Source: an uncultured Planctomycetales bacterium
GTDB taxonomy: Bacteria > Omnitrophota > Gorgyraeia > Zapsychrales > JANLHA01
DNA length: 64,000 bases
Assembly (NCBI GenBank): GCA_964400065.1
Contig: CAYNSM010000001.1
Location: 16,685 to 80,684 of the forward strand
Direction of reading: 5' to 3'
The notes under the pieces were generated by a model. That model had not been told where the DNA came from. It did no database searches and saw only the letters and a list, made by a program, of their open reading frames with translations. Shown piece after piece: positions 6,969-60,536 of the stretch (positions are counted from its first letter, which is position 1; each line of letters opens with the position of its first letter). Made by a program: the position numbers and the translations under genes.

Positions 6969-8687
6969 TTATTCCCCCTCCAAGAAAGTAACCCGCTTAA
7001 GCTCCTCAATGGTTGTCTGTCCTTGCATGACTTTTTCTAACCCGTCATCCCACAAAAATTTCATCCCTGATTTTTGCGATGCACTGCGCAGTGCATCGAC
7101 CGACTTTCCCTCATGAATCAGTTGCCGCAACTCTTTGTCGACGACCATCAGTTCAAAAAGACCTGTGCGGCCGCGAAAACCCGTCTGACCGCAATCTTCA
7201 CATCCTTTTCCACGATAAAATGTCACTTCTGCCGCAGAAGCTTTGATCCCCGCAGAATCTAACTGTTCTTGACTAGGGCTATAGGCTTCTTTACATTTGT
7301 CGCAAATCGTACGCACCAAACGTTGCGCTAAAACACAACAAATCGACGAGGTCACAAGATAGGAAGCGATCCCCATGTCAATTAACCGTATAATCGAACT
7401 AGAAGCATCATTCGTGTGCAACGTGCTAAACACCAAATGTCCCGTCAGCGCAGCACGCACCGCAACATCCGCCGTTTCCAAATCGCGCATCTCGCCTACC
7501 ATAATGACATCCGGGTCTTGACGCAAAATCGAACGCAACCCCTTTGCAAACGTGATGCCGGCCTTGTTGTTGACCGGAATCTGATTGACCCCTTCAAGGT
7601 CATATTCCACAGGCTCTTCAATGGTGATGATATTTTTGTCGGGAGAATTAAGCGTTTGTAAAGCCAAGTAAAGCGTCGTTGTTTTGCCGCTTCCCGTGGG
7701 ACCCGTAACCAAAATAATGCCGTAAGGACGATTGATCAGCTCGCTAAAACGCTCCAGACAGCTTTTGCTTAAGCCGCAATCCATAAGGCCCATTTTAATA
7801 AACGATTTGTCCAATAAGCGCATGACCAGTTTTTCGCCATAAATTGTCGGGACTGAAGAAATTCGCACATCGATATTTTTGTTTTCGACGCGGATTTTAA
7901 AACGACCGTCCTGCGCCTGGCGCTTGATGGAAATATCCATCTCCGCCATGATCTTAATACGTGAAATAATCGGCGCCTGCAGCCGTTTGGGCGGCGACAT
8001 CGTTTCGCGCAATATGCCGTCAATCCGGTAACTGATGCGCAAACCCTTTTCATCCGGTTCGACGTGAATATCACTGGCCCGCTGCTTGATTGCCTGTGTA
8101 ATAATCGTATTGACCAGTCGTATAATCGGCGCATCGACCGCCTGAGCATCAATTTTTTCATTTTCTTCTTCACGGGTTTCTCGAATGATCTCAAGCTCTT
8201 CGGCCTCCTGAGTCATGCCCTTAACAATCTCCTCGATGTTTTCCTTTTCCTCATAAAAAATGCTTAAGGTCTTTAAAATATCTTCCTTCTTACTCAACAC
8301 CGATTCGATCTTACATTTTGTCAGTGCCTGAAGATCATCTAAAACAAAAACATCAAACGGGTCAAACATGGCGATCGTCAAAATATTTGCAGTTTTATAC
8401 AGAGGCAAAACAAAATTTTCACGGCAGGTTTTTTCGGGGACAATTTTGACGATTTGCGGATCGGTGATTTTGCTAAAAAGATCTTTAACAATCGGAATTC
8501 CCATGACCTTTGCGGTAAACTCCAAAAGTTTATCTTCACTGATAAACCCCAAGTCGACTAAAATCTGGCGCAAAAGGACCTTGGTTTCCTTATGTTTTTT
8601 TAAGGCCAACTCAAATTGCTCGGCGGTAATTAGCCCTTCTTCAACTAATCTTTCGCCAAACCTTTTGCGAATGTATGTTGGTGGCAT
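6969..8687 (-). CDS. pilB: type IV pilus / T2SS assembly ATPase PilB/GspE
   Basis: N-terminal GspE_N-like domain, Walker A GPTGSGKTTTLY, a tetracysteine motif (CDKC...CEDC) and Asp/His boxes. Confidence 0.9.
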   Translation of the reverse strand: MPPTYIRKRFGERLVEEGLITAEQFELALKKHKETKVLLRQILVDLGFISEDKLLEFTAKVMGIPIVKDLFSKITDPQIVKIVPEKTCRENFVLPLYKTANILTIAMFDPFDVFVLDDLQALTKCKIESVLSKKEDILKTLSIFYEEKENIEEIVKGMTQEAEELEIIRETREEENEKIDAQAVDAPIIRLVNTIITQAIKQRASDIHVEPDEKGLRISYRIDGILRETMSPPKRLQAPIISRIKIMAEMDISIKRQAQDGRFKIRVENKNIDVRISSVPTIYGEKLVMRLLDKSFIKMGLMDCGLSKSCLERFSELINRPYGIILVTGPTGSGKTTTLYLALQTLNSPDKNIITIEEPVEYDLEGVNQIPVNNKAGITFAKGLRSILRQDPDVIMVGEMRDLETADVAVRAALTGHLVFSTLHTNDASSSIIRLIDMGIASYLVTSSICCVLAQRLVRTICDKCKEAYSPSQEQLDSAGIKASAAEVTFYRGKGCEDCGQTGFRGRTGLFELMVVDKELRQLIHEGKSVDALRSASQKSGMKFLWDDGLEKVMQGQTTIEELKRVTFLEGE

Positions 8688-50840: not shown

Positions 50841-53800
50841 CTAACGCACTTCAACTAAAGAAACATCTTCTGCCGGCGGCGTTGAAGATAAGCCTAAAAG
50901 CAAAGGCAAACTCACAGGCGTTGTCTGAATGATAATCGGCGTAATGCCGCTAAACGGGACGATGGCAGAGTTTTCAGGATCAAAAAGAATTACTGACGAG
51001 GCCGGCCGGTCTGTTTGTTCTTCCAATTGCCAATTTTGTGGATTTAAGTCAATACCGCCGGGCGGCTCTATATCCAGAGAAGAACTGACAGATTTAGGAC
51101 TTTGCTTTTGCTCTTTAAGCCAAGCTTCAATCTTTGGTTTTAACATTTTAACCGCCTCTGTAAAACCCTGCATTGAGGAGCCTGCACCATTGTGCCGCAC
51201 GCCAAGATTTCCGACAGTTTGCGCATATTCATATTCTGCCCCCGGGATTTCAATAGCCAAACGCGTTTCGTATCCGCCTGTTTCTTGGCTCTGCACAACA
51301 TGCAGATCAAACACTCGCCCAGCAATATCAACCTGCGTTAAGAACTCAATTCTTTGATTCTTATACTCTGGCTGAATCAGATTTAACCGTTTGGCTTGAA
51401 TCTCATCAAGTGTCAAAACCTTTGTGGACTCTCCCAAAGGAGCAATAGACACAATCCCTTTGCTGGCTGCAGTTTTATTAAAATCTCTCAAAGCCTCGTC
51501 AAATGCTTTAGAAAAATCTGTCCCGCTTTGACTAGCATAAAGATTTCCTCGCCACCCTTGCGGCCGATCATTTTTAATAAAACGAATATTGACTACTTTT
51601 TTAGGCTCATCGCGTACTTTTTTCTTACCTTCCCACGCTCTATCCCGACCGCCAGATAACTCAATAATCAGCTCCCACGGCTCACCGGAAACATTAACTG
51701 GCGCCTTGACTATTAAACTTTCTCCGTGAGCATAAGACTTTTGCGCTAAGACTTCGCTGACAGCTTTTAAAATGCTTTGCACATTATTTTTTTCTGATGC
51801 TGGCACTTGGGTTAATCTGCGTCCAACGACCTCTTGCAGGGAAGTTTCGCCTTGTTTACGAACTAGCTCAACGTCCCACGCATCATTCTCAAAATAATCT
51901 TGGCTAACGACAAAAACATCTTGATCTGCATAACCTTGGTCTTTAATGAAACGTTCTAAAGCGGCCCTCGCTTGCTTCTGATCTTGGGCACTTACTTTTT
52001 GTCCCCCTTGAGCAAGACGATCAATAATTTCTTTTTTATTCCCCTGAAAAGATTCAATCTGTACTCTGGTCACGTCTAGGCCTATTCCACCCGGATCAAA
52101 ATGAGGAATAATATTTGTATTCAAAAAAGACATATCCGCTGGCTTAGCTTGTGTATCAGCTATTCCCTTTCTTTTTTGTGCATCTGTTTTAGCTTTTGCT
52201 AAATCCGTCATAGTCTTACTTAAAAATTCTTTCATAAAGTCTTTAAAAAACTGGCCAGACTCTCTTTTTGAAACGGTCTTCTCTTTAAACATCTCTGCCG
52301 CTAATTCTTTCGCCTGATTGCGACGCTCTGGCGATTGACTTCGGTCATATTGATCTGAAAAAATCCTACGAAAATGATGAAGCAGCAAATCTGTATCAGT
52401 AAAATATTCGGCAAACTCGCGATCGTGCGAAACCTCATGATATCCCATATGCGTTAAAAGTTTTTTCAAGAATTCTTGTTCCTTCGCTGAAAGTTTTTGT
52501 TTAACCTTTGACACTTCTTGTTGATACTGCTTGTCGCTTTCATACAAAGCATGACCTTTTTCATGTTCACGCACAGTATTTGCATCATCTTCTCGCAAAT
52601 CATTTGGATGAACCAAAATATTGACATTTTTGTCCTCAACAAACTTGCCGCCTTGATTTTTAATCACTCCATTCTTTTCCAAAAAGTTTCTAAATTCTTT
52701 TTCCTCTCGTGATAATTTATCGCCGGCCTGATTAAAAAACCGCGCCAACTCATCAGCGGTAAAGTTATAAGCCGTGAATAATGAATCCTTCTTTTCTCCA
52801 AAATAATCACTATGTATATCCCCCGTCGATGTCAAAAGCTCATCAACTTTTTGTGGACTGACAACCTGCCCCTGATAGGCAGGATGTTCTTTCCAAACTC
52901 CAGCACGATTTAACATATCTCCCATTTCACGCATATTTCTGACAGCAACTTCCTTTGTACCCGGCAAACCTTTGACATCTTCCATAGCCAACTTTTGCCC
53001 TTTAGGAATTGAAATGGGCTTTAATTGATTAACTATTGGAGCAAAACCATTTGGCGGTGAATAAACCTGCGGGACATATTCATCCTTTGGCATCGTATAT
53101 GGAATACTAATCGGCTCCTGAGGAACATACTTCATGCTGTTTTCTTGCTCAACTGGCTTTTCCCCAACTTTGCGCGTTAGCCTTTGAATACCTGCCTGAC
53201 CAATAGGAACATCGACGACCTCACCGTTTGCACCTAATAAAGCATGAGGCGAACGTTTTCGTTCTTCTTCCGATAAACCAAAAGGATTTTTAGGATCAAC
53301 GCCTTCGATAAACGCCGTCGTCCGATTAGAAGACAAAGAATCATTTGGATCTAAAAACCCTTCCCCTAAAGGTTTTCCATCCATGCGCATTATGAGCGGC
53401 TTTGATTCTTTTTGCTCGGCGGAATTGGATGCTTGTTGCTCAGCAGATTTTTTTACGTCTGGCAAACTTACAAGAACCGCCTCTAAACTTGGCGCAGATT
53501 CAATTCGGTGAGTTTCATTTCCCTGCGGCCCCCACAACACAAAAAAGTGAAACAACAAAGACACACTCAGCGCGGCAACAAAACTACGATTCTTGCTTTC
53601 ACGATTTAATCCTAAATAAGTTAAAACTTGATAAGCTCTACCCTTTTGGACACCTTCAACTTCTAAAGCACTGCCAGCAACGACAGATGTTTTTTCCTCT
53701 AAATTTAAATTCGTCACATCAACCCCACCGGAAAAATACTTTCGAGGGATCATCTCCTGCGTCTGCGGGTCAACTTCTTCTTTAATAATGTTGTAAATCC

Positions 53801-54809
53801 CTTTTTCAAAAGACTGCAAGTATTCCCCGTAAATTTTTTCTTTAAGCGAAAGGTCGTCTGTCTCAACGCCCACAATTTTATTCTGCTGGACATAATTTTT
53901 TCCCAAAAAACTTTCGCGCAAATGTTTTTTAAACCAAACAGCCAAAATAAGCGAATGATACACTTGTCGCAGCGGCGCAAAATCTTTGCCCTCATTGACT
54001 TGTTTTTCGATGGTGGGAAGGATGGTAGAACGAAAGATATCTGATGAGGCGCTCGACTTCAGAACTCCCCCTTCCCCCTCTTTATCTAAAGAGGGGGTTA
54101 CTAGATGATTCTCTTTATTAGAAGAGAGGTTTCCCCCACTCTCCCCCTCTTTTTTAAAGAGGGGGCTGGGGGGAGTTAAATCCTCCGCCAGCATGACCTT
54201 CAAATGCGCCTGAGCGACAAAAACCTTGTCGTCTTGACGATAAATCTTGGCAATATCCGGCACGATCCAGACTTTGTTCTGTAGGGAACGGTCGCGACCG
54301 TTCCCTACTTTAGCCCAATATTCTTTCCCCAAATCCGTATCTGGATTCGTTAAAGACGCCGCTAATTGTTTTAAAAGATAATCTTGCGCCAAAAGCGTCA
54401 TGCCCATTTTAGTCGATCCAAATCCGTCGGGAATAATCCTGTCCTTCTCATCCGGCGAAAGATTGACCCACATATTTTTGTCAGGGACAGTCAAAGACGC
54501 CAAGAAATATTTGATCAACTCTTGGGATTCATCTGTCAAAGCTTGCCCAGCTAAATTTTCCTCCCCAGCATCAATGATAAAATTAAATTTTAAGGGATCG
54601 TCGGAAAAATATTGTAAACCACGTAAAACAACCGGAGAATACTCGAGCTTTTCAGAAACCATATCTCCCGGCAAAGGTAAAGCCGCGGCTTCTTGCCCAA
54701 ACGCCGGACTAACCGGCATCAAAACTGCATTGACGACAAACGCCAAAAGAATGCCGCACGAAATATTGCGTCGCAGGGGACGATTGTTTTTTGTATTAAG
54801 TTTTATCAT
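50841..54809 (-). CDS. giant secreted protein A (1322 aa), paralog of downstream-strand neighbour
   Basis: Signal peptide. Shares about 450 aa of N-terminal domain with gene B. Internal hydrophobic segment. Single HEKGH motif. C-terminal GGIDLNP...PLLLG region. Confidence 0.8.
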   Translation of the reverse strand: MIKLNTKNNRPLRRNISCGILLAFVVNAVLMPVSPAFGQEAAALPLPGDMVSEKLEYSPVVLRGLQYFSDDPLKFNFIIDAGEENLAGQALTDESQELIKYFLASLTVPDKNMWVNLSPDEKDRIIPDGFGSTKMGMTLLAQDYLLKQLAASLTNPDTDLGKEYWAKVGNGRDRSLQNKVWIVPDIAKIYRQDDKVFVAQAHLKVMLAEDLTPPSPLFKKEGESGGNLSSNKENHLVTPSLDKEGEGGVLKSSASSDIFRSTILPTIEKQVNEGKDFAPLRQVYHSLILAVWFKKHLRESFLGKNYVQQNKIVGVETDDLSLKEKIYGEYLQSFEKGIYNIIKEEVDPQTQEMIPRKYFSGGVDVTNLNLEEKTSVVAGSALEVEGVQKGRAYQVLTYLGLNRESKNRSFVAALSVSLLFHFFVLWGPQGNETHRIESAPSLEAVLVSLPDVKKSAEQQASNSAEQKESKPLIMRMDGKPLGEGFLDPNDSLSSNRTTAFIEGVDPKNPFGLSEEERKRSPHALLGANGEVVDVPIGQAGIQRLTRKVGEKPVEQENSMKYVPQEPISIPYTMPKDEYVPQVYSPPNGFAPIVNQLKPISIPKGQKLAMEDVKGLPGTKEVAVRNMREMGDMLNRAGVWKEHPAYQGQVVSPQKVDELLTSTGDIHSDYFGEKKDSLFTAYNFTADELARFFNQAGDKLSREEKEFRNFLEKNGVIKNQGGKFVEDKNVNILVHPNDLREDDANTVREHEKGHALYESDKQYQQEVSKVKQKLSAKEQEFLKKLLTHMGYHEVSHDREFAEYFTDTDLLLHHFRRIFSDQYDRSQSPERRNQAKELAAEMFKEKTVSKRESGQFFKDFMKEFLSKTMTDLAKAKTDAQKRKGIADTQAKPADMSFLNTNIIPHFDPGGIGLDVTRVQIESFQGNKKEIIDRLAQGGQKVSAQDQKQARAALERFIKDQGYADQDVFVVSQDYFENDAWDVELVRKQGETSLQEVVGRRLTQVPASEKNNVQSILKAVSEVLAQKSYAHGESLIVKAPVNVSGEPWELIIELSGGRDRAWEGKKKVRDEPKKVVNIRFIKNDRPQGWRGNLYASQSGTDFSKAFDEALRDFNKTAASKGIVSIAPLGESTKVLTLDEIQAKRLNLIQPEYKNQRIEFLTQVDIAGRVFDLHVVQSQETGGYETRLAIEIPGAEYEYAQTVGNLGVRHNGAGSSMQGFTEAVKMLKPKIEAWLKEQKQSPKSVSSSLDIEPPGGIDLNPQNWQLEEQTDRPASSVILFDPENSAIVPFSGITPIIIQTTPVSLPLLLGLSSTPPAEDVSLVEVR
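54074..54165 (-). repeat. in-frame palindromic repeat units in giant gene A
   Basis: CCCCCTCTTT-atct-AAAGAGGGGG (54074-54097) and CCCCCTCTTT-ttt-AAAGAGGGGG (54143-54165). Confidence 0.85.
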
Positions 54810-54830
54810 AAATCAGACTTTATCTAATTT

Positions 54831-57800
54831 CTAACCAGCCGAATTAGCCGCCAGTTCTGGTTCTCTGGCTGGTTCTTTAGGAGCCTGCCCTAAAAAGATC
54901 GGCAAGGTCTGGGCATTGATCGGCGTAATGTTAATGATGACAGGAAACAATCCCTGAATATTAATCTGTTCCAAATTCTGTTGGGGCAAAGGCAATGGAA
55001 CACCTTTCCCGTCGCGCTTAATTTGCAAATTCATGTTGGTTGGGTCAAAGTCGATACCACCCTTCGTGAAATCACCTTCTACTGTCGGCGCGGAAGAACT
55101 ATTTGCAGGTGCCGAAGAAACATCTGGCAACTCATAGATCATTGACCCGGAATGTGCCAAGGCATTGATTTGATAATCTGCCAAGCGTTCCCCTTTTTCC
55201 ATGACCTCAATTAAGTCACGAACTAAAGGATTTATAGGATTAATAAAACGAAAACCATGTTTCCAATAAAAAATGACTGCCGTTCGTTCAATCGCTTCTC
55301 TCCCAAATATTTGTTTTCCTTGCACAATAAAACTTTTTCTTCCGGTTATTGTCTTAAGAATGTCCATCCTCCCATGCAGAATATCCCAACTATTAATCTT
55401 ATCCTTTCCTAAAGCCACACGCCTTGTCTGAACGTCACGAAGGACATTAAATGTCAAAAAAATCGAGTCTGTGTCTGATTGTACCGGAATCATACTCGCA
55501 CCATATGCAAGCGGCTTATCGTCTGAATCCACGACAAGTTCAAACCAACGGTTTTCATTTTGATCATAAATTCCAACCCAACGCAGATCTCCGATTTGCG
55601 CAATTTTAACCAAATTTTCTTTTCCAAGATCATACATCCCAGGAATGTTGCGCTTTCGCGAATGTAATGCCCTCCAAAACTTATCCACCCAAAACATTCT
55701 CTTATCGGCCTCAACATCCTGCACATCCACCGTGCTCGACGCGGCGGGGGGAATATCTACATCGATTTTCTTACCTGCCTTAGTTGCATCAATTACTGGC
55801 ATTACTTTATCAGCGGCGGGCCCAAATAAAGTCTTATTATCGCGATAATTTGCACCCAAAGAATTTCTATCCAGAGCTATTAGTACAGCTTCAATTTGCT
55901 TTCTTAAACCAATCAACTCCCACTTATCACCGTATTTAAACGGATATGTTTCTCCATAACCTTCCAAATAACTAAAAATACTGGTATTCAATATCCATGC
56001 CGTATGAAATAAATCTATCAAATCATCTTTTGTTACAACTTGACCATCATTAAATTGAGTAAAATAAACTAAAGCCTCAATTAAATCACGAGTAGATACT
56101 TGTTCGCGATTTTGAAAATTTTCCAAAATACGGTGGTAACGAACATATTGAGATCCATACCTTTCATATCCCGGCTGCTTTCCAATAAGTCTCTGCCAAT
56201 TTTCGTGTAGCCGATTTTCAACCTCTATTGTGCCCTGTCTCAAATCTGAAACTATCTGCTCCTCATTAGACAATTTGGAAGCAATGGATGGACTCGGTTC
56301 AATCGGTTTTTGGCTTTTTTCATACTCGGTTGCCGCGTCTGAAAGTAAATTCTGGGCCGCCTGAAAATCAGCCCAATCTTTTAGACGATCTTTTGCACTT
56401 ATAAACTCCGAACTTCCGATCACTTGCTCCAAAGAACTTAAATCAATGACCATGTCGGCAACTTTTTCACGGGCCTGCGTTGTATTTAATATAGCTGCTC
56501 CTATCGACGGATCATTAGCAGCAATAACGCGCTTTAAAATCTGAAACTCCACATCCGCCGTTATCTCAAACCCAAGTCCAGTATGACTCGGTGTCGGATT
56601 GGCCAACGTTGCAATCAGTTTAATCATCCCACTCTGAGTTTTGGGTTGCTGCACTAAAGCATCTAACAAGCTAATCAATTGCTGACCAGAGATCTTTTTC
56701 CCCGTAAAATTAACAGGGTTAACTTGCGCAGGAACGTCCGTTGACATAGCAATAGCTTTTAATGTCCCAACGGCTTCTTGCAGCTCTGTTAAAGCATCTC
56801 CTTTTAATTGACCACTTTGCGCTGCTTCTTCGATAAGTCTTACGACTCTCGAAATGTCAATCACAGGATGACTCGCAAGCGTTCTACTAAAATAATTTAA
56901 TATTCCAGGATTTCGACTTCCGAAAGCTTTTATCACAATTTCATCAGGACTATTTGCTAATGTGGTCGCCATATGCACTATTTTGGCAATAGCAGCTATA
57001 TCTGCATCGCCCGGATTATCTCTCAATTGTTGGATTGATTCTGCTAAAACTTTAATCTCGCCTACCGCGCTGGAGGCGAGGGAATCAATAGTGATGCTTA
57101 AAATATTTTGAACGGTAAATCCTTTAATGTCATAAGCATCTTCTTCGAGACTAGGGACTTTAACGCGAACTATTGTTGTGCCATCAATGACCCTATCTTT
57201 TTTTCCTATCGTCTGGCCATTAATTTCAATGATTGAACCTGTGGGCGATTCCGTGGTTTCTTTACTGCCATCAAAATGTTTATACGTCACAGTAACGCTA
57301 TCACCCCCCTGAAGCAATGAAACTGCATGGACAATCTCTTTTTGCACGTTAAACGTTTTCCCAACTAATTGTGCTCTTTCTTCGTCCAAAGCGCTCGAGG
57401 CAGCGAGTGTGACGGAAATGATTTTATCCAAAGACATCAGAGCATAACCTTCGAACTTAATCTTTCCTTTTTCTCTATCGATTTTTTCTATTTTAGTCTT
57501 AGTAGATATACTTTGCTCATTCGCACTTGCCCAATAAGTGAATGAAACAATTTTTGTCCCAACGCTAATTAAACTGCTTAAAACGCCTTCTTCAAATTCT
57601 GCACTAGTCAATTCTTGATCTTTCGGCAAAGTTACCGCAATCCCGCTGGAGGCGCTTTTGCTATCTGGAGGAAGACTCTTAATTAAATTTTCTATTTCCT
57701 TCCCAAGCGTACGAGGAGTGACCTCCTGAGTTGATTGGTCAACACTCCCATCACTGCGTGTTATTTTAGAAATTGTCCTCAATTTTACTATATTTGGCAA

Positions 57801-60536
57801 ATTACCGACTTCCTTCAAGACCCCTTTAGCATTTTGATAAATTTGACGATATACAGCCTTTTGATCTTGAGGGTTCATCCCTTTAGCTTTCTGAAAATCC
57901 TTTTGCAAATTAAGAAAAATCTGAAAATTGTGTTCCAAAGACTCTGCCGCAGATTGCATTTGCTCTGTGCTCCTAATCAATGCTTTCGCGTTTGCAATAT
58001 TACCTTCAACGGAAACTTGAATATTTCTTAAATTCTGGCTTACATCGGGATGTCCCTCCAGGAGAGGTTCTTTACGCAACTCTTTAATCGTCGCTAAGAT
58101 ATCACTTAAAGTGTTAACCATGCCTTGAGCTTGCTCGCTATTATATTGATTGGGAAGCGCATTACTCTTATCAATCAATTTTATCAACACCCCTTCTGCA
58201 GCATAAATTCTTCCAATGTCTTGCGGAGTATACCCAACAATAGATTGCAAATTACCTTTTACTGTCGCATCAACATCGCTATAGTTGGCAGTGACTGCCC
58301 CATTAACAATTTGCCGCGCCCTAACCACCTTGTGCCCGACATTTTCATTCAATTTGCGTTCGTATCCTTGCGAATTATCAGAAAGCCAAACATCTCCATC
58401 ACCGAATTTAAGCATAGGCGTCACATGCCCAGCAGGTTCTTGTTTTTGATTTACAAAATTCCTTATAACCGGAACTACTGAAACATCATAGGGACCTTTA
58501 AAAATCCCTAAATCGCCAAGAATCATAATGCGCAACTCCGCTTCATTACCGCAAATAAATGTTTTTGGATTTTCTTTGTCATTGCCATATTGATAGCGGA
58601 GATTTCCAATAAATACATTTCTCCAATTATCAGGCCATAATTCCCTTGAGATATTCCCAAAAAATTTAGAATTTTTCCTAATTTCCTCGAGGGCCTTATG
58701 ATCATAGACTGCACTTGCTTTGATCCAAGACTGAACCCAACGGGCTGCTGATTTTTGTAATGCCCCCAATTTAATATTATCGCTAGAGATCTTTTGGGCC
58801 TCACGTTGTAATCTAGCCCTGACCTCATCAAAACTTTTGGCCCCATTAAGAAAACTAATCAATCCGTCCGTCGTTATCTGTCCGCCGTTTTTTTGTGCAA
58901 ATTCTTGAAGCATTTTATCTAAATTGATATTCAATTCATTTTTTGCACCATTCGTATCTAACTTTCGTCCTCTATAATTCTGTTCCGCAACATAAGCATT
59001 CGCAAAATCAAGGGAAACCGCAGGAACATCGAATGAAGCAAAACTCAAAGCAAGAACGGCAGCAAAAGCAGAAAGCAATTTTGTTAACTTCTCTTTCCCG
59101 CTAGCGACAACATCCGTGACTCCACTCGAGGAAGCATCAATTTGCGCTTGCGCGGCGGCCACAGCGCCTAATGCCGGGCCCTCTGCTTCAGTTAAAATCC
59201 GAACTATAAATGGTAAAATCGGCCCACTTTCTTGCAATACTCTTTCTATGCCCTCATCATTAATAGGCGTTATCTTTAAATCAAAATCCTTCCAGCCGGC
59301 TACAGATGAACCTTCTACAATTTGAATCCCACCACTAAAATACTTTCTCGGGATAAGGTCGCCGTTTTCGTCGGCTTCTTCCTTAATCAAGTTGTACGCG
59401 CCTTTTTTAAAGGCGGCTAAATATTGCTCGTAAATTCGCTGTTTCATCTCTTTGTCGTCGGTTTCAACGCCGGCGACTTTGCCTTTATCGGTATAAATTT
59501 TGCCCAGCAAACTTTCTTTGAGGGCTTTTTTGTACCACGCGGCTAAGATGACCGAGTTGTAAATCTGACGCACGTCGGCAAAATCTTTTCCTTCGTTGAC
59601 CGCTTTTTCGATGGTGGGAAGGATGGTGGAACGGAAAATTTCGGACGAGAGGTTGGATTTCAGAACTCCCCCTTCCCCCTCTTTATCTAAAGAGTGGGTT
59701 ACTAGAAAATTTTCTTTATTTGAAGAAGGGGTTACCCCACTCTCCCCCTCTTTATCTAAAGAGGGGGTTAGTTGGGTGTCGCTCTGTTTATCTAAAGATG
59801 GGGTTGCTAGAGCATCTCTGCTCTCCCCCTCTTTTTTAAAGAGGGGGTTGGGGGGAGTTAAGTCCTCCGCCAGCATGACCTTCAAACGCTTTTCGCCAAC
59901 CAAGACGATGCCGTTGCTTTCTAACACTTCGGCTTTAGCAGGCATAATCCAGACCTTGTTAAAGTCGCTAGACATTGGAGGCTGGACACTGGTGGTTGAG
60001 TTTTTCTCTAGCGTCAAACGTCCAGCATCTAACGTCCTTACCCCATTAACCTGATCCCAATATTTCTTACCTAAATCCGTTTCCGGATTGGTGAGTGATG
60101 CGGCCAATTGTTTCAAAACATAATCCTGCTCGAGCATGGTCTTGCCCATCGTCGTCTGCCCCAAAACGTCGGGAATGATTCTGTCTTTTTCGGTCGGAGA
60201 AAGATTGACCCAAACTTCCTTATCTGGAATCGTTAATGCGGCGAGAAAATATTTAACGAGCTTTGTTGTTTCACTTTTAAGTTCGTCAGTCGAAAGTTTC
60301 GACTGACCTTGATCGACGATAAAATCAAACAAAAGCGGGTTTTCAGGATGAATTTTAAGGCCGAGCAAAACTGGCGGTTGATAACCAGCGGCAAGACTTA
60401 CCGGGTTATTTAAAACTGGTAACACCTGTGCGCCAGCCGGAGCAACGATAAGCGAAGTTAGAAAAGTTAGTGCAATAAAACTGCTGATAACTTTTTTACA
60501 AAACGTTAGACTATCGCGATTAAAGAGAACCTGCAT
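54831..60536 (-). CDS. giant secreted protein B (1901 aa)
   Basis: AAGGAGGA RBS. Signal peptide. Same N-terminal domain as gene A. Expanded SLDKEGE repeat block. C-terminal GGIDFDP...PIFLG region. Confidence 0.8.
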   Translation of the reverse strand: MQVLFNRDSLTFCKKVISSFIALTFLTSLIVAPAGAQVLPVLNNPVSLAAGYQPPVLLGLKIHPENPLLFDFIVDQGQSKLSTDELKSETTKLVKYFLAALTIPDKEVWVNLSPTEKDRIIPDVLGQTTMGKTMLEQDYVLKQLAASLTNPETDLGKKYWDQVNGVRTLDAGRLTLEKNSTTSVQPPMSSDFNKVWIMPAKAEVLESNGIVLVGEKRLKVMLAEDLTPPNPLFKKEGESRDALATPSLDKQSDTQLTPSLDKEGESGVTPSSNKENFLVTHSLDKEGEGGVLKSNLSSEIFRSTILPTIEKAVNEGKDFADVRQIYNSVILAAWYKKALKESLLGKIYTDKGKVAGVETDDKEMKQRIYEQYLAAFKKGAYNLIKEEADENGDLIPRKYFSGGIQIVEGSSVAGWKDFDLKITPINDEGIERVLQESGPILPFIVRILTEAEGPALGAVAAAQAQIDASSSGVTDVVASGKEKLTKLLSAFAAVLALSFASFDVPAVSLDFANAYVAEQNYRGRKLDTNGAKNELNINLDKMLQEFAQKNGGQITTDGLISFLNGAKSFDEVRARLQREAQKISSDNIKLGALQKSAARWVQSWIKASAVYDHKALEEIRKNSKFFGNISRELWPDNWRNVFIGNLRYQYGNDKENPKTFICGNEAELRIMILGDLGIFKGPYDVSVVPVIRNFVNQKQEPAGHVTPMLKFGDGDVWLSDNSQGYERKLNENVGHKVVRARQIVNGAVTANYSDVDATVKGNLQSIVGYTPQDIGRIYAAEGVLIKLIDKSNALPNQYNSEQAQGMVNTLSDILATIKELRKEPLLEGHPDVSQNLRNIQVSVEGNIANAKALIRSTEQMQSAAESLEHNFQIFLNLQKDFQKAKGMNPQDQKAVYRQIYQNAKGVLKEVGNLPNIVKLRTISKITRSDGSVDQSTQEVTPRTLGKEIENLIKSLPPDSKSASSGIAVTLPKDQELTSAEFEEGVLSSLISVGTKIVSFTYWASANEQSISTKTKIEKIDREKGKIKFEGYALMSLDKIISVTLAASSALDEERAQLVGKTFNVQKEIVHAVSLLQGGDSVTVTYKHFDGSKETTESPTGSIIEINGQTIGKKDRVIDGTTIVRVKVPSLEEDAYDIKGFTVQNILSITIDSLASSAVGEIKVLAESIQQLRDNPGDADIAAIAKIVHMATTLANSPDEIVIKAFGSRNPGILNYFSRTLASHPVIDISRVVRLIEEAAQSGQLKGDALTELQEAVGTLKAIAMSTDVPAQVNPVNFTGKKISGQQLISLLDALVQQPKTQSGMIKLIATLANPTPSHTGLGFEITADVEFQILKRVIAANDPSIGAAILNTTQAREKVADMVIDLSSLEQVIGSSEFISAKDRLKDWADFQAAQNLLSDAATEYEKSQKPIEPSPSIASKLSNEEQIVSDLRQGTIEVENRLHENWQRLIGKQPGYERYGSQYVRYHRILENFQNREQVSTRDLIEALVYFTQFNDGQVVTKDDLIDLFHTAWILNTSIFSYLEGYGETYPFKYGDKWELIGLRKQIEAVLIALDRNSLGANYRDNKTLFGPAADKVMPVIDATKAGKKIDVDIPPAASSTVDVQDVEADKRMFWVDKFWRALHSRKRNIPGMYDLGKENLVKIAQIGDLRWVGIYDQNENRWFELVVDSDDKPLAYGASMIPVQSDTDSIFLTFNVLRDVQTRRVALGKDKINSWDILHGRMDILKTITGRKSFIVQGKQIFGREAIERTAVIFYWKHGFRFINPINPLVRDLIEVMEKGERLADYQINALAHSGSMIYELPDVSSAPANSSSAPTVEGDFTKGGIDFDPTNMNLQIKRDGKGVPLPLPQQNLEQINIQGLFPVIINITPINAQTLPIFLGQAPKEPAREPELAANSAG
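59675..59847 (-). repeat. in-frame palindromic repeat units in giant gene B (4 units, 2 perfect)
   Basis: Units at 59675-59698 (1 mismatch), 59744-59767 (perfect), about 59784-59803 (degenerate) and 59825-59847 (perfect). Confidence 0.85.

Follow-up and report, generated by a model that had tools for sequence, protein, structure and literature searches.

Translated palindrome arrays in two tandem Omnitrophota-type genes as a probable in-frame case of a dispersed triplex-motif DNA repeat

Palindrome arrays in genes A and B

We analysed a 64-kb stretch of contig CAYNSM010000001.1 (hereafter the window, in whose numbering all coordinates are given), in which two tandem paralogous genes, A and B, contain arrays of short DNA palindromes that are translated in frame within the N-terminal domains of their products. 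The two N-domains (~400 aa) are 51% identical, and a short C-terminal motif, GGID...P(V/I)II..TP, is common to both proteins. A Pfam search with both genes gave no family match, and a Foldseek search of the modelled N-domain against the PDB gave no significant fold match. Homologs of the N-domain (592 hits) are hypothetical proteins mainly from Omnitrophota, the best of which are 47-48% identical to gene A.

The pattern CCCCCTCTTT-N3/4-AAAGAGGGGG has four exact matches in the window (54074-54097, 54143-54165, 59744-59767, and 59825-59847), compared with none in 100 dinucleotide shuffles, and every copy, perfect or imperfect, falls within gene A or gene B. The entire window has seven perfect hairpins whose stem is at least 9 bp long, of which five lie within the two N-domains, and base-shuffled copies of the whole window contained 0-4 such hairpins. 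On the coding strand, the unit with a 3-nt loop reads CCC CTC TTT AAA AAA GAG GGG (PLFKKEG) and that with a 4-nt loop CC CCC TCT TTA GAT AAA GAG GGG (PSLDKEG), the right arm AAA GAG GGG keeping one frame in both unit types and the left arm being read in two. A first-pass annotation of this DNA had counted two perfect palindromes in gene A and, in gene B, two perfect, one with a single mismatch and one degenerate; these copies are confirmed here, and the two-frame left arm with a constant right-arm frame, which it also described, agrees with our readout of the coding strand. The difference in copy number between the paralogs to which it pointed corresponds to 81 nt, or two units, more in gene B. 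It missed the flanks AACTCCCCC/GGGGGAGTT that bracket the arrays (the latter being the third strand by which the family is identified), the decayed central unit of gene A, and the clustering of perfect hairpins in the two N-domains.

Both arrays (115 nt in gene A and 196 nt in gene B; Table 1) have AACTCCCCC as their left and GGGGGAGTT as their right flank, exact at 54063-71, 54169-77, 59664-72, and 59851-59, and exact copies of these flanks occur at those four places only in the window. The decayed units are mostly uncompensated, including two in gene B without compensation. Folding predictions gave -68.4 kcal/mol (z -4.7) for the gene A region, whose 115-nt array is able to form one long hairpin, and -93.1 kcal/mol (z -6.3) for the gene B region. 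The arrays were not reported by Tandem Repeats Finder, because their units are too divergent and indel-variable.

Table 1. Genes, repeat units and high-identity tracts at the locus (window numbering; triplex motifs as predicted)
Feature	Position	Strand	Description
Gene A	50841-54809	minus	1322 aa; Omnitrophota-type; N-terminal hydrophobic helix and N-domain
Gene B	54831-60536	minus	1901 aa; tandem paralog of gene A
Complete class II triplex motif, gene A	54063-54097	minus	CCCCCTCTTT-AGAT-AAAGAGGGGG-AA-GGGGGAGTT; 9 triads; encodes TPSLDKEGEGGV
Decayed central hairpin, gene A array	54110-54127		TCTCTT-TATTAG-AAGAGA
Complete class II triplex motif, gene A	54143-54177	plus	CCCCCTCTTT-TTT-AAAGAGGGGG-CTG-GGGGGAGTT(A); 10 triads; coding strand TPPSPLFKKEGE
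Triplex motif, gene B	59664-59698	minus	hairpin 59675-59698 with one mismatch; 9 triads
Decayed unit, gene B	59712-59727		TTCTT-TATTTG-AAGAA; homologous to 54110-54127, with one compensated pair change versus gene A
Internal perfect hairpin, gene B	59744-59767		without good third strand; part of 81-nt expansion region
Decayed uncompensated unit, gene B	59780-59803		CGCTCTGTTTATCTAAAGATGGGG
Complete class II triplex motif, gene B	59825-59859	plus	10 triads
High-identity tract, gene A side	54003-54203	minus	shared with 59604-59885
High-identity tract (putative gene conversion), gene B side	59604-59885	minus	shared with 54003-54203

Hairpin stem and third strand

The sequence GGGGGAGTT sits 2-3 nt past the purine arm AAAGAGGGGG, on the outermost copy at either end of the array, and, when laid antiparallel to that arm, follows the reverse-Hoogsteen rule (G*GC, A/T*AT) over 9-10 consecutive triads at four sites. 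Considering these flanks together with the orientation of the arms, each gene therefore holds an outward-facing inverted pair of complete units, with hairpin-only or decayed units between them. Judged by pairing rules, a complete unit is composed of a 5′ pyrimidine arm, a loop, a purine arm, 2-3 nt, and a G-rich third strand. This layout is that of the class II intrastrand triplex motifs (TM), a class that came to notice in E. coli under the name BoxC, was treated as PIT elements by Hoyne et al. (2000), and has been surveyed in Holder et al. (2015; PMC4666352). The hairpin has a homopyrimidine 5′ arm, a homopurine 3′ arm, and a loop of 3-4 nt, within the 1-6 nt that define the class, and the third strand following the short second loop offers 9-10 triads, where the definition takes at least eight. 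The element does not match the consensus of the E. coli family TMECO, CCCTCNCCC-N3-6-GGGNGAGGG-N3-GGGNGAGGG, from which its stem differs, and it is therefore placed in the same class but not in the E. coli family; sequence of the E. coli (TMECO) type was seen in the fetched loci L009 and L040.

The relation between stem and third strand was followed in 74 other perfect homopyrimidine-arm hairpins from the fetched loci, picked blind to their flanks; these loci had been chosen for the canonical element and their genomes are a non-random set, whereas the 74 hairpins themselves are unselected on flanks. At least seven consecutive triads with the hairpin's own 3′ flank were found in 30 of the 74, mainly after a 3-nt loop, compared with 1 of 74 for the flank lying 40 nt more distal, and in 1000 trials with arms permuted among the hairpins, the number having at least seven triads averaged 6.6 and never exceeded 13. 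For the 30 positives, the own arm gave a mean of 9.03 triads, as against 4.66 ± 0.39 with permuted arms. The pairs of stem and third strand are diverse (AAGGGGGAGGA with AGGAGGGGGA; AAAGGGAGG with GGAGGGATT; AAAGAGAGGG with GGGTGAGTTA; GGGAGAGGG with GGGTGAGGG), and the last of these fits the TMECO (BoxC) consensus of PMC4666352. When G positions alone were used to set the register, the third strand had A or T opposite A in 72 of 73 cases (T in 43%); reverse-Hoogsteen pairing predicts both bases at this position, while a mirror copy would yield A only. The third strand thus covaries with the stem as a rule and not by coincidence.

Dispersal of the element and the loops that hold it

In a collection scan covering one genome per species and requiring perfect stems (10-bp arms with any 2-8-nt loop), the canonical stem was found in at least 117 stretches from at least 102 assemblies. 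Among the matches listed, to which the following counts of copies and groups refer, 13 assemblies gave two or three contigs, and the groups represented include Omnitrophota, Planctomycetales-labelled metagenome-assembled genomes (MAGs), Patescibacteria/Saccharibacteria, Nitrospirota, Delta- and Gammaproteobacteria, Pasteurellaceae, Dehalococcoidia, Elusimicrobia, and Cloacimonadales. A flank, counted as AAC[T/G]CCCCC or GGGGG[A/C]GTT or as the variant AAATCTCCCC / GGGGAGATTT, stands beside the stem in 84 of 128 copies, usually 2-3 nt away, compared with ~0.1% at random positions. The copies are mostly intergenic (median spanning open reading frame (ORF), 92 aa, versus 331 aa at control positions), and those intergenic copies that are one-sided show no bias in orientation to the neighbouring genes (25 versus 29 downstream; 20 versus 25 upstream). 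A scan of viral contigs gave 39 stretches with the motif, mostly prophage-type records, by which phage-borne spread is neither proven nor excluded.

Other copies lie in frame inside genes, with the Pfam domains continuous across the insert: in PolX (two genomes, at two different sites), PolA, TrmD, the CN-hydrolase domain of Lnt, Sua5/TsaC, and a cyclophilin. The insert in Lnt of an Omnitrophota genome (L083) is a double hairpin between AACTCCCCCC and GGGGGAGTT, having the architecture seen in gene A. Translations of the element in other genes differ in frame or strand, and include APSFPKRGKGE, PPLYSKEGE, SPLFFSKRGLGG, and NPLFTKEGG.

Several of the fetched loci display further arrangements of such motifs. 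In Arsukibacterium ikkense (L058, 1390-4690), four triplex motifs, each after a second hairpin, separate small ORFs that by eye look like toxin-antitoxin genes, in a layout resembling a cassette array (integron-like). In an Omnitrophota MAG (L093, 5090-5360), at least five triplex motifs with differing stems are packed into ~300 nt, resembling mosaic clusters of repetitive extragenic palindromic (REP) sequences (bacterial interspersed mosaic elements, BIMEs). The end of a contig from a Dehalococcoidia MAG (L014, 1-260) contains three tandem units of ~90 nt, each two-sided (AACGCCCCC...hairpin...GGGGGAGTT); in two-sided copies of this kind, one flank often has G/C where the other has T/A, leaving one perfect third strand per strand. 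The patescibacterial PolA (L019) and the saccharibacterial PolX (L011) also carry additional short Pro/Gly-rich inserts, SPPKVGGDKGG and SPPSRGGKKRG, which suggest translation of other G/C-rich hairpin repeats, and thus multiple independent in-frame insertions per gene in these phyla.

In the family of genes A and B, the palindrome site lies in a segment bounded by the conserved sequences KVMLEEDY and IIREIIIP, which ranges in length from 26 to 89 aa among 120 homologs and is unalignable. In the AlphaFold model of gene A (mean predicted local distance difference test (pLDDT), 72), the stretch of residues 217-246 falls below a pLDDT of 50, lacks secondary structure, and is located between a confident β-hairpin and a confident helix. 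The site is, according to this model and the family alignment, a hypervariable loop predicted to be disordered and tolerant of insertion. Two other members of the N-domain family (L010 and L074) have their own copies of the canonical element in this loop, with other loops and spacers, that of L010 being a 48-nt perfect palindrome. The nearest relative of gene B, the ortholog-like P0004, is 63% identical overall and far more so outside the two variable loops; its loop 2 has one perfect copy with the hairpin loop GGTT and the peptide PSLVKEGE, and its loop 1 a copy with a 9-bp stem, and the motif TLDAGRLTL is found in loop 1 of gene B and in loop 2 of P0004. In other close relatives, the same loops contain unrelated perfect DNA palindromes (ATTCCCGCGAAAGCGGGAAT and ATCCCCGCTTTCGCGGGGAT; GGGCGGGTTTGAAACCCGCCC; ATCCCCGAATGTTCTTATCGGGGAT; GAAGCAATCC...GGATTGCTTC). 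Short structured repeats of several families thus accumulate in these loops, which act as sinks for them and whose content is quickly turned over.

Loop 1 of gene A itself contains another palindrome at 54281-54308, a perfect 28-nt sequence (GTAGGGAACGGTCGCGACCGTTCCCTAC) with a 14-bp stem and GTAG...CTAC ends, REP-like in appearance and translated in frame as VGNGRDRSLQ; no match to this GTAG-type palindrome was found among all fetched loci. At the matching position, gene B has a different insert, RTLDAGRLTLE, built from an AACGTCC direct repeat.

The arrays of genes A and B are colinear save for the 81 extra nt. Over some 200-280 nt with the array at the centre, the DNA of the two genes is 85-96% identical, compared with 50-70% elsewhere in the domain. 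Where the residues agree, the codons agree as well in 92-93% of cases within the array plus its left flank, compared with 42% for the conserved core upstream and 52-63% downstream. Since the spacers are common to both arrays, independent insertions are ruled out. The simplest reading of these alignments would be gene conversion between the tandem paralogs, together with a two-unit expansion in gene B or a contraction in gene A.

Origin of the arrays and comparison with known repeats

Taken together, the palindromes in genes A and B are probably the Watson-Crick hairpin of a dispersed, REP-like, class II triplex-motif DNA repeat of the BoxC/PIT/TM kind, which lies in frame in loops predicted to be disordered and would then have been expanded and homogenised. 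The data show how the units are built, that they are dispersed across genomes and sit in frame within unrelated genes, that the loops vary and are predicted to be disordered, and that the two arrays are homologous. The repeat would have come into the loop as DNA, displacing the greater part of what the loop ancestrally contained; hairpin units may then have slipped or recombined unequally, which added the 81 nt to gene B, and a tract would have been swapped between the paralogs through gene conversion. The palindrome would be kept as the repeat's own, recently copied sequence, which the loop tolerates. The difference in frame between units is explained by the variable length of the hairpin loop, combined with survival of stop-free, in-frame configurations only.

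Several points weigh against this account. Formation of a triplex is predicted here by sequence rules only, and that of the E. coli motif has been shown in vitro, not in vivo (PMC4666352). No transposase was seen, the ORFs of the fetched loci not having been systematically screened (REP-associated tyrosine transposases, RAYT, included), and no empty site was found; the inspected borders (the window, L010, and L083) show no target-site duplication or direct repeat. The copy counts are lower bounds from a scan for perfect stems, and within the window the element is confined to genes A and B. In addition, one pair in the central unit is compensated between the two genes (C-G versus T-A), a single event of little weight that nevertheless hints at some structural constraint.

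It has to be asked whether selection on the products of these genes could account for the palindromes instead. If selection acted on the peptide repeat PSLDKEGE/PLFKKEGE, and the palindrome arose as a side effect of the codons used in a single repeat lineage, in-frame translation of the units and recurrence of the peptide KEGE(G/S)G would be expected and are seen; however, identical DNA is present in non-coding sequence of many phyla, other genes translate the element as different peptides, in other frames and from either strand, and the left arm is in two frames already within the window, making this explanation extremely improbable. The strong predicted folding of both regions is what a structural element in mRNA would show, with hairpins that pause ribosomes or regulate the stability or translation of both transcripts under selection at the RNA level. 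Such a role is very unlikely, considering the unbiased orientation of the intergenic copies, the report that RNA does not form purine-motif triplexes (PMC4666352), the homologs without conserved structure at the loop site, and the two gene B units that decayed uncompensated; moreover, a search of the window region and nine loci against Rfam at permissive thresholds gave only sub-threshold generic hairpin hits and no family match.

The variability of the loops is also consistent with an adaptive contingency locus, in which structure-prone repeats would be kept for making the loop DNA unstable, so that an exposed loop in secreted or surface proteins comes to vary in length and sequence. Copy numbers differ between the paralogs and a conversion tract is present, loops 1 and 2 are hypervariable family-wide and hold different repeat families in close relatives, and triplex motifs are tied to local genomic instability in E. 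coli (PMC4666352). This reading is nonetheless doubtful: the same repeats occur in housekeeping enzymes, where variation brings no obvious benefit, and tolerance of a disordered loop accounts for the pattern without adaptation.

With the dispersed-repeat origin preferred, the proposals of the first-pass annotation can be sorted. Among the roles it listed, an in-frame-inserted element resembling REPs or MITEs (miniature transposable elements with inverted repeats) is the one backed by evidence, namely the dispersed stem with its flank and the occurrence in unrelated genes; a hotspot of recombination or slippage is plausible in view of the 81-nt expansion and the gene-conversion tract, and an mRNA structural or pause element found no support, the intergenic copies having no orientation bias. 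Its suggestion that DNA or RNA structure rather than the peptide is selected holds as far as DNA is the conserved entity, as indicated by the non-coding copies and the other frames, but structural selection within the genes is not needed, because decay is mostly uncompensated and relatives of gene B have other palindromes or fewer copies.

Compared with the BoxC/PIT/TM motifs, the element shares the class II layout, stems of 9-10 nt, a second loop of 2-3 nt, frequent inverted pairs, an association with local sequence instability, and, as seen across other genomes, multiple highly conserved copies and absence of orientation bias. It is present in Pasteurellaceae; Haemophilus was one of the genomes from which motifs of this sort were reported earliest. 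TMECO itself combines stems of 9 nt with a second loop of 3 nt, is always intergenic without strand bias, commonly forms tandem inverted pairs, has no association with known mobile elements, and marks regions of raised rearrangement (PMC4666352). In contrast to the stem CCCTCNCCC of this proteobacterial family, the window element has CCCCCTCTTT, is translated and arrayed with hairpin-only units, and belongs to a variant that ranges from Patescibacteria to Omnitrophota.

Intragenic REPs and in-frame Rickettsia palindromic elements (RPEs) have been documented (Di Nocera et al. 2013; PMC3733652). Like RPEs, which are described there as in-frame palindromic inserts giving short peptides at tolerated sites of genes that stay functional, the present element is inserted in frame into intact genes: genes A and B are intact, and PolA, PolX, TrmD, Lnt, and TsaC keep their Pfam domains. 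According to those published descriptions, RPE-1 is longer, RPE-4/6 are CGTC-tagged, all are Rickettsia-restricted (PMC3733652), and neither a homopurine arm nor a third-strand segment forms part of an RPE. The GTAG/CGTC-tagged REPs are likewise stem-loops of 20-40 bp, mostly extragenic, often in inverted dimers and sometimes intragenic, and those inside genes often hit replication or repair genes (PMC3733652), to which PolA and PolX may be compared; the window element, unlike them, has no GTAG/CGTC tag, the flank GGGGGAGTT/AACTCCCCC forming instead a mirror-like G-rich strand. Bacterial MITEs (such as Correia/NEMIS) are similar in that an array of 115 or 196 nt with outer inverted repeats can form one long hairpin in frame, and different in that the present element has a unit of ~35 nt, no insertion-sequence-like terminal repeats, and no target-site duplication visible at the inspected insertions. 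A 46-bp inverted repeat at capsule loci of A. pleuropneumoniae, CAAATCTCCCCTATCCCCTCTTTACTAAAGAGGGGG, is essentially the same element with the Pasteurellaceae flank variant, but is intergenic and has been noted at those loci only, where it was considered a possible site of termination or recombination (PMC6008488); this was the only report retrieved in a literature search by arm sequence, and searching for the translated peptides, PAKAGIQ and FPRKRES among them, retrieved no paper.

The palindromes are accordingly a further case of the known intragenic in-frame REP-like repeats, of the triplex-motif type, and involve no new coding trick. What goes beyond the literature consulted is the translation of triplex motifs, the finding that essential genes in Patescibacteria and Omnitrophota carry them, and the covariation of the third strand. 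For annotation, peptides such as PSLDKEGEGGV, SFPRKRES, and VGAGLKPA inside conserved proteins of uncultivated phyla are to be taken as translated DNA repeats and not as functional or peptide-selected motifs. Triplex-motif repeats, strictly intergenic as reported for E. coli, can ride in frame within genes, one exact stem-and-flank variant occurs across very distant phyla, and the reverse-Hoogsteen covariation offers a testable handle on the biological relevance of triplexes. More speculatively, and in our estimate with a low probability of being correct, the hairpin-plus-third-strand repeats might constitute a cross-phylum superfamily, in which the third strand covaries because a triplex of single-stranded DNA is the functional or mobilised form, and which actively colonises coding loops, also those of essential enzymes, in Omnitrophota and Patescibacteria, acting as a generator of loop diversity in surface-protein families of Omnitrophota; such a superfamily would provide comparative evidence for the in vivo relevance of intrastrand DNA triplexes, a question open since 2000.

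Two further palindromes were encountered in the window. At 60285-60307, gene B has a perfect palindrome with an 11-bp stem (GTCAGTCGAAAGTTTCGACTGAC) in a region that is conserved and of constant length (GQSKLSTDE); P0004, L121, and L120 have nearly the same GQSKLSTDE-type peptide with non-palindromic codons, so several substitutions jointly made this palindrome, which could be a template-switch event or chance. The other, a perfect 22-nt palindrome at 7077-7098 (CGATGCACTGCGCAGTGCATCG), is located within a minus-strand ORF, with the translation ELMVVDKELRQLIHEGKSVDALRSAS..., which by eye resembles the C-terminal portion of a secretion ATPase of the GspE/PilB type.

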